Assembly (NCBI GenBank): GCA_044892525.1
Contig: CM097885.1
Coordinates: forward strand, 30,196,001-30,260,000
Direction of reading: 5' to 3'
From: Schmidtea polychroa
Taxonomy: Eukaryota
DNA: 64,000 nt
In this document: positions 17,168-17,850 of the stretch, piece by piece
How the letters are laid out: each line of letters begins with the position of its first letter
Numbering within the stretch: the stretch's first letter is position 1
Made by a program: the position numbers and the translations under genes
Notes under the pieces: model-generated
The model's input: only the letters and a program-made list of their open reading frames with translations
What the model was told of the DNA's origin: nothing
Database searches by the model: none

Positions 17168-17330
17168 AGTAGTAGGATGTGTCACCACTGGCACATGTCA
17201 CCTCTGGCACACCCCCCCCCGGGGGGTAAAAAAAATTTTTTTCAAGGTCAAATTTTAAACAAAGACATATGACTCATCAAGGTCATTGAAACAAAGGCCA
17301 TGACTCATCCTATGACTCATCAAGGTCATT
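17168..17330 (+). repeat. Polinton left terminal inverted repeat
   Basis: Reverse complement of 35826-35991 apart from homopolymer lengths and a few substitutions. Confidence 0.95.
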
Positions 17331-17850
17331 TTCAAGGTCATATGACTCATACTATGACTCATCAAGGTCATTTTCAAGGTCATATGACTCATACTATGAC
17401 TTATATGCCGTTCAAAATTTTTTTTTCAAGGTCATATGACTCATAGTATGACTCATCAAGATTCTCAAGGTCATTTAAACAAAGACCATGACTCATCCTA
17501 TGACTCATCAAGGTCATTTTCAAGGTCATATGACTCATACTATGACTCATCAAGGTCATTTTCAAGGTCATATGACTCATACTATGACTTATATGCCCTT
17601 CAAAATTTTTTTTCAAGGTCATATGACTCATAGTATGACTCATCAAGATTCTCAAGGTCATTTAAACAAAGACCATGACTCATCCTATGACTCATCAAGG
17701 TCATTTTCAAGGTCATATGACTCATACTATGACTCATCAAGGTCAAAAAAATTTTCAAGGTCATTTTCAATGTCATCTGAGTCACCCTATGACTCACCAA
17801 GGTCATTTCCAAGGTCATATGAGTCATCGCGATGAGTCATCAAGGTCATA
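17240..17850 (+). promoter_or_regulatory. Subterminal tandem array of TGACTCA, TCAAGGTCA and AACAAAG motifs
   Basis: More than 20 TGACTCA/TGAGTCA and about 20 TCAAGGTCA words. A similar array on the opposite strand lies at ~35540-35910. Regulatory function is inferred. Confidence 0.55.

Follow-up and report, generated by a model that had tools for sequence, protein, structure and literature searches.

Clustered AP-1-type and monomeric nuclear-receptor-type words at the ends of a Polinton: candidate host-factor enhancers

Results

The element and its surroundings

The window, i.e. the whole analyzed stretch of 64,000 nucleotides, has the character of an AT-rich, animal-type genome. Judged by its ends and its genes, one element in it is a Polinton/Maverick, with the following features.

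17162–17167 (+), target-site duplication, left copy, 6 bp
17168–35991 (+), Polinton/Maverick element, 18,824 bp, with AGTAGT ends, target duplication and core genes
17168–17330 (+), left terminal inverted repeat (TIR), containing the first 8 words of the left array described below
21322–21759 (−), element-encoded TBP-like ORF (Pfam TBP, E 1e-14)
21773–22489 (+), A32-type packaging ATPase (Pfam Pox_A32)
23103–24254 (+), rve integrase with chromodomain (Pfam)
25631–26851 (+), double jelly-roll major capsid protein (predicted model, pLDDT 88; Foldseek)
26796–27263 (+), adenain-type protease (Pfam Peptidase_C5)
29829–33842 (+), protein-primed family B DNA polymerase (PF03175 in many homologues)
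35826–35991 (−), right TIR
35992–35997 (+), target-site duplication, right copy, 6 bp

The assignment followed the definition by ends, target duplication, size and core genes in PMC8097293. The TIRs of about 165 bp end with (AGT)2, and 159 of 163 aligned bases are identical, with three gap positions. They are bordered by the 6-bp duplication, and the size falls into the range of about 13–25 kb. The core set of pPolB, rve integrase, A32 ATPase, adenain protease and double jelly-roll capsid protein is present; the polymerase ORF was named via PF03175 of its homologues, and the Pfam search of the element itself gave no polymerase match. The capsid model matched iridovirus, PBCV-1 and mavirus capsids in Foldseek, with E values of about 1e-16 to 1e-12. 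For minor capsid, PW and PZ, candidate ORFs without Pfam match lie in the expected block. A search of 17000–36200 against Rfam gave no match. The insertion broke a gag-like ORF of a retroelement, the frames of which are found on either side. Within the integrase ORF, an in-frame (ATT)n expansion (23492–23621) encodes a long isoleucine run.

Two further regions of the window were noted. At 58596–62180 (minus strand), a related Polinton has left another polymerase gene, now decayed, which is followed by (ATT)n, as in the first element. At 50641–55859, inverted repeats of 316 bp (98%) lie 4.5 kb apart; one of them overlaps an ORF for a protein kinase of 269 aa, and an RNase H-like fragment is found inside the pair.

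Word arrays at both ends

Both ends showed the same inward succession of terminus, C/G run, word array, AT-rich stretch, (ATT)n, TATA-like boxes and first gene. The arrays contain three short words, TGA[CG]TCA, CAAGGTCA and AACAAAG, which are denoted AP-1-type, receptor (NR5A/ERR-type) and HMG-type words.

17242–17848 (+), left word array, 23 AP-1-type, 21 NR5A/ERR-type and 4 HMG-type words
17384–17456 (no strand), imperfect local palindrome, first copy, 34-nt arms, 82%
17572–17643 (no strand), imperfect local palindrome, second copy, 34-nt arms, 85%, in the 187-bp duplication
35543–35709 (−), right array, inner part, 21-bp repeat ×8, receptor half-sites only
35710–35913 (−), right array, outer part, 8 AP-1-type, NR-type and 4 HMG-type words, 5 composites

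The left end (17240–17850) contains 23 copies of TGA[CG]TCA, 21 of them in the 9-bp form ATGA[CG]TCAT, as well as 21 copies of CAAGGTCA, 19 of which are TCAAGGTCA, and four copies of AACAAAG. The respective numbers at the right end (35540–35915, other strand) are 8, 13 and 4. Exact words account for 59% of the 611 bp on the left; coverage on the right is 46%, or 60% when AAGGTCA is counted as well. The first-pass annotation had described both ends as built almost entirely of the three words. The high density of AP-1 and receptor words was borne out, but "almost entirely" amounts to about 60%, and AACAAAG is a minor component. AP-1, receptor and AACAAAG words occurred 3, 0 and 10 times in the 16.5-kb interior of the element and 3, 1 and 10 times in 45 kb outside it. 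AACAAAG is present four times per end, twice per end within the TIR, compared with a background of about one per 4.5 kb outside the element, and it has few variant positions.

The intact receptor words all point from the terminus inward, with mirror polarity at the two ends. They hold this one direction, whereas the centre base of the AP-1 words varies between C and G (3 of 23 on the left). The commonest unit is an AP-1 word, a 1-bp spacer and a receptor word; there are nine such composites on the left and five on the right, 14 in total, and 12 of the 21 receptor words on the left and 8 of the 13 on the right lie outside them. Tandem periods are 42 and 187 bp on the left and 21, 43 and 73 bp on the right. 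The right inner sub-array contains four direct AGGTCA-AGGTCA pairs (DR0), and the left end is devoid of such a sub-array. The left-end palindromes are formed by two decayed inverted units; one arm of the first copy is a decayed inverted NR + AP-1 unit.

At both ends, the TIR holds the first eight words, which are common by descent. Farther inward, the words follow each other in a different order, and the two ends have 7 spacer types in common (out of 21 on the left and 15 on the right), in agreement with the earlier remark that the arrangement diverges beyond the TIR. The first word lies 76 bp and the first AP-1 word 103 bp from the terminus, and the arrays extend to 414–681 bp. No AP-1 word in the arrays has an ARE-type GC extension. 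ORFs across the array were rejected as genes, as they are read-throughs of the repeats.

Two neighboring regions were also noted. Inward of the right array, 35040–35540 contains degenerate repeats rich in AAGG and TTCGAA, and none of the AP-1 or receptor words there is intact. Two 16-bp direct repeats, each with TGGCA, lie within the outer 45 bp (17180–17211 and the right-end mirror). TGGCA, which we take to be an NFI half-site, sits where adenovirus has its NFI site, and as an origin helper the 16-bp repeats would be a more plausible candidate than the word array.

Matches to known binding sites

All 23 left and 8 right AP-1-type words conform to the pattern TGA[CG]TCA (best ATGA[CG]TCAT); the TRE is given as TGACTCA in PMC13513840. 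The extended half-site YCAAGGYCA for NR5A/FTZ-F1/ERR monomers was found 21 times on the left and 13 times on the right. According to passages of bioRxiv 10.1101/2022.05.17.492379, TCAAGGTCA is the Esrrb motif, which Nr5a2 binds with similar affinity, and AGGTCAAGGTCA is given as a Rarg site. TCAAGGTCA also fits the Ftz-F1 consensus of PMC5056698. The FTZ-F1 of a flatworm, the schistosome, binds an SF-1 element (PMC8673669), and for Drosophila it was proposed that Fos and Ftz-F1 cooperate downstream of JNK (PMC4610234). Candidate receptors for the arrays would be of the FTZ-F1/NR5A, ERR or HR4/GCNF type, between which the sequence does not discriminate. AACAAAG, which we take to be a Sox/TCF-type HMG site, weakly points to an HMG-type role. 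Hence, the word identities of the first-pass annotation agree with the consensus for AP-1 and for NR5A/FTZ-F1/ERR, and are weak for the Sox/TCF word.

Constraint on the words

Dinucleotide shuffles of the left array (n = 300) yielded the three words with means of 0.27, 0.08 and 0.08 and maxima of 2, 1 and 1. Because tandem duplication has multiplied the words, the significance of this comparison is overstated, and raw counts prove little. For a founder test, the 34-bp unit was shuffled 200,000 times and compared with a panel of 14 motifs. At least three panel motifs occurred in 548 (mononucleotide) or 806 (doublet) of the 200,000 shuffled founders, i.e. 0.3–0.4%, with a panel that had been drawn up after the words had been seen. 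Panel coverage was 0.51 and 0.28, compared with at most 0.15 and 0.20 for letter-permuted controls.

Variants were taken from contigs of four out of 24 sequencing runs on a 1.1-kb stretch (X1, 17,199; X3, 6,332; X7, 159; X16, 186), and the counts rest on 40 of the 93 variant rows, 23 of them in the array. Words labelled leniently cover 402 of the 611 bp (66%), and 2 of 17 polymorphic sites were inside them (p 6e-6). When all 23 array variant sites among the rows examined were included, 6 lay inside lenient words (p 1e-4); both p values are weakened, as contigs cross-map between repeat units and the sites are non-independent. Several words that have decayed in the present copy are intact in nearly all other contigs. 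A naive count, with 1 of 23 variants in words, was biased because such decayed words get labelled as spacer; it was discarded and replaced by the lenient labels. None of the 12 non-redundant variants with a context absent from the present element hit an intact word. At non-anchored positions (20 and 17 distinct contexts), 75–100% were kept inside the 9-bp sites and 40–82% outside, and conservation falls off at the edges of the published footprints. In X16, which is labelled as a second organism, some contigs carry the same words with different spacers.

On this evidence, tandem copying alone does not suffice to explain the arrays. They are, as far as the sequences tell, real, constrained and family-specific assemblies of AP-1 and monomeric receptor words. 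The earlier statement that the words are conserved rather than the array is thus upheld, as the spacers vary and polymorphic sites largely spare the words.

Other Polinton-type ends

A gene-less foldback element (1–15091; perfect arms of 6,215 bp at 1–6215 and 7179–13393) has a Polinton-type terminus at about 15091, and some 50 bp from that end it carries the same C/G run as the Polinton. Its 1.36-kb repeats contain 1, 0 and 0 of the three words, its subterminal 30- and 101-bp repeats are built of unrelated words, and this end does not rise above the panel controls.

Viral contigs were searched for relatives. ATPase and capsid alignment searches retrieved none, and the polymerase alignment search retrieved 13 + 77 loci. 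None of 91 polymerase-related loci had more than two AP-1 or more than two CAAGGTCA words in 400 bp, and the composite 17-mer had one single match in the viral contigs. Close relatives (40–61% identity) were uninformative on arrays because their contigs are short and, for the most part, do not reach the ends. In L037, which has a related polymerase gene (44% identity), the region ahead of that gene (170–360) shows three TAGGTCA half-sites with AT flanks, a single TCAAGGTCA and CCAAT words, directly followed by a TATA-like box.

From 28 candidate starts near viral contig ends, 11 were picked by eye as terminus-like; they are candidates only and belong to distant relatives with about 30–35% polymerase identity. 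The AP-1 + receptor array was absent from all 11, and 10 of the 11 did not beat the panel controls, which the remaining one (L073) did marginally, at 3%. By eye, CRE-like repeats were seen at L067 and L070:15–700, E-box repeats at L072:22–700 and X-box-like repeats at L071 (minus strand, from offset 203), none of them above controls. The panel comparison lent no support to the view that canonical motifs tile the ends of Polintons in general.

Because the foldback element and the 11 distant candidate ends lack the words, the array is specific to its family rather than typical of Polintons at large. The first-pass annotation had named unrelated words in related Polintons as an outcome that would speak against its view; this was found in part, at the foldback end and the 11 distant candidate ends. 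The passages of PMC8097293 at hand describe Polinton ends by TIR length and a 6-bp end motif, and no host-factor array. None was found in the openly licensed literature searched either; repeat libraries such as Repbase may describe these ends.

The first inward genes

18009–18209 (+), (ATT)n tract between left array and first genes
18958–19472 (+), Bcl-2-like gene, first inward at left, weak concordant matches
34103–34722 (−), RING finger gene, first inward at right (Pfam zf-C3HC4_3, E 3e-7)
34731–35001 (−), (ATT)n tract between right array and TATA box, read inward

Each array lies upstream of the first inward gene. The left gene starts 1.1 kb from the array, probably has two exons (18958–19269 and 19299–19472) and is preceded by TATAAAT at 18907 and 18927. 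An Atlas value of 0.91 with low recognition, a Pfam Bcl-2 match with E 0.029 and PDB matches that were all of the Bcl-2 family (7 of 7 rows, E 0.3–0.7) tentatively suggest a Bcl-2-like protein. Just after the left (ATT)n, at 18211–18340, two TATATA-containing 15-bp repeats precede a short ORF starting with Met-Gly. On the right, the RING ORF (34103–34447) has a TATA box at 34713–34722, 0.86 kb from the array. Ahead of this ORF, the frame contains either an in-frame stop in the present copy or an unrecognized intron. The Bcl-2-like gene and the RING gene would both be candidates for host-control genes.

A parallel in a baculovirus

IMG/VR, which mostly comprises phage and protist viruses, was scanned for triple receptor words and triple AP-1 words. 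Among the at least 234 loci listed, a single one, L258, clusters both words (17 + 17 within 600 bp). It is an alphabaculovirus 29–30-bp repeat before fgf (L258:5890–6500) with an AP-1 palindrome, an FTZ-F1/ERR-type site and CRE-like words at the repeat edge, and it is neighbored by baculovirus F, LEF-11, PP31 and FGF. The two words and their relative orientation are the same as in the Polinton arrays; the longest match is 13 nt, and therefore convergence or chance has to be assumed. A search with the composite pattern gave 7 stretches, one of them multi-copy (the baculovirus locus), and the reversed control gave 9, none multi-copy. The parallel is a single case without a statistic. It carries weight because the sole match lies at an enhancer locus of a nuclear DNA virus that infects animals. 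tblastn for Polinton proteins found none among the at least 234 loci listed, and the inspected ones were mostly coding repeats.

The repeat unit matches the 29-bp non-hr repeat tabulated for DapuNPV in PMC4599791, which is stated to occur only there and in OpMNPV, at the site where other group Ib viruses have hrs. A conserved hr beside fgf also appears in PMC1976136. Baculovirus hrs are origins as well as enhancers (PMC4599791), and the strength of BmNPV hrs correlates with the number of CRE + TRE (PMC13513840). A receptor site in the 29-bp repeat is not mentioned in the passages of PMC4599791 at hand and was not found in the literature searched, so that L258 points to a candidate receptor site beyond the descriptions published there.

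Discussion

Candidate enhancers of the early genes

Starting from the observed words, their layout, their constraint across copies and the baculovirus parallel, we regard it as the best reading, and a fairly probable one, that the arrays are candidate enhancers through which host AP-1 and a monomeric nuclear receptor would act on the first inward (early) genes. At first pass, an enhancer or an origin helper had been proposed. The enhancer gains from the constraint, the footprint edges, the baculovirus pair and the position upstream of genes, and the origin helper loses from the distance of the first word to the end.

We hypothesize that a Jun/Fos/ATF-type bZIP dimer would occupy the 9-bp pseudo-palindrome, and that the extended half-site would be bound by an orphan nuclear receptor that binds as a monomer (FTZ-F1/NR5A, ERR or HR4/GCNF type). 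A small founder cassette in the TIR may have been multiplied and rearranged separately at each end, and selection would retain the words while the spacers drift. The enhancer activity of each array would drive the first inward gene, a host Pol II target, which would be the Bcl-2-like gene on the left and the RING gene on the right. The early programme of the element would be inducible by stress signalling and gated by a cell-type factor, and later genes might be passed to the TBP-like protein that the element itself encodes. Six-frame and Pfam searches of the element detected no bZIP, receptor zinc finger or HMG domain; one weak regex match lies inside another ORF. In planarian promoters, motif presence alone was no predictor of regulation (PMC10558129).

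Alternative explanations

It is unlikely that host factors bind but chiefly repress, keeping the element silent or the late genes off until the copy number rises, or that the arrays titrate factors. Orphan receptors repress the SV40 late promoter, and the repressor GCNF binds DR0, which counts for repression, as do the receptor half-sites and the four DR0 pairs of the right inner sub-array; the mapping of the array to thousands of contigs would fit titration. In contrast, left AP-1 words are as numerous as receptor words and adjoin them in the 14 composites, and the TRE/CRE count tracks activation in baculovirus hrs (PMC13513840).

Neutral minisatellites, or hairpins of single strands in strand-displacement replication, would explain the clear tandem periods, and the match to host sites would be due to chance, multiplied by slippage or gene conversion. 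Other Polinton-type ends have subterminal repeats of unrelated words, and the composite can form a 5-bp stem. The structural version stays alive because the array strand folds much more strongly than shuffled sequences do (z −9.4, 20 shuffles). However, homogenization would fix the spacers too, yet the spacers vary and the words do not, and most receptor words lie outside the composites and the would-be loop is conserved. We consider this explanation to be rather improbable.

The idea that the arrays are auxiliary elements of a protein-primed origin or of integration is improbable to a similar or somewhat higher degree. The arrays begin within the TIR at both ends with mirror polarity, and in baculoviruses, hrs double as origins (PMC4599791). 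Nevertheless, the two Polinton ends differ in length and make-up, and the gene-less foldback element with Polinton-type ends has next to none of the words. The NFI and Oct-1 sites of adenovirus, the helpers of its origin, lie within about 50 bp of the end; an origin helper of this type is unlikely because the first word is 76 bp from the Polinton end, and the words start at 76–103 bp and reach 414–681 bp.

Binding of an element-encoded terminal, packaging or regulatory protein, like transposase sites or IE1 on hrs, is very unlikely, as several small ORFs without family and the TBP-like factor would offer candidates, but no bZIP, receptor-type zinc finger or HMG signature is encoded, and two exact host consensus sites that are also paired in an unrelated virus would be unexpected for a private protein.

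What may switch on a Polinton

The reading as host-factor enhancers bears on what switches on animal Polintons and in which cells. According to PMC8097293, particles of animal Polintons had not been observed. The constrained array, with words for two factors, points to JNK/AP-1 and an orphan receptor as candidate inputs and also to candidate early genes, so that the question of activation becomes testable with injury and cell-type data that already exist. Planarian Polintons are de-silenced during differentiation and held down by SMEDWI-2 (PMC8532177), and an active array would contribute a cause in cis. The literature searched yielded no paper on AP-1 accessibility in wounded planarians.

Comparison with known systems

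Like the hr and non-hr repeats of baculoviruses, the Polinton arrays are tandem non-coding repeats rich in host bZIP sites, and they contain the clustered CRE/TRE sites of hrs, in the TRE type only. Unlike hrs, which occur at several dispersed loci of a circular genome with a 30-bp imperfect palindrome core, they are two terminal arrays of an integrated linear element, with different spacers and two decayed palindromes. In addition, hrs have an IE1-type partner, and none was found in the Polinton. The Polinton array would thus work like an hr at most.

Adenovirus, a related virus lineage with protein-primed replication, has early units (E1 and E4) close to the ITR at its ends. Host-factor sites at both ends are common to the two systems, and in both the first inward genes would be host-control genes, one of them Bcl-2-like. 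In adenovirus, the NFI and Oct-1 sites are single and lie within about 50 bp, and there are a few Sp1/ATF sites; the Polinton, in contrast, has 25–48 words over 370–600 bp, starting 76 bp in.

The SINE B1 of the mouse carries TCAAGGTCA on a high-copy repeat as well, and it is bound by Nr5a2 and Esrrb and enhancer-like in embryos (bioRxiv 10.1101/2022.05.17.492379). It has one or two sites per copy, which serve host genes, whereas the sites of the Polinton are dense, combined with AP-1 and placed as if to serve the element.

Enhancers built of repeats are known from DNA viruses and LTRs; the version at Polinton ends appears to be new in the literature searched. It is possible, although we propose it tentatively, that Polinton ends act like retroviral LTRs, as a fast-evolving, family-specific enhancer cassette that sets the cell type and the trigger for waking the provirus, and that the AP-1 + FTZ-F1/ERR pair evolved twice, here and in a baculovirus of moths, as a code for stress plus cell state that recurs among nuclear DNA viruses of invertebrates. 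If this were true, thousands of dispersed copies would, in a host that probably regenerates, represent enhancers responsive to injury or a sink for factors.
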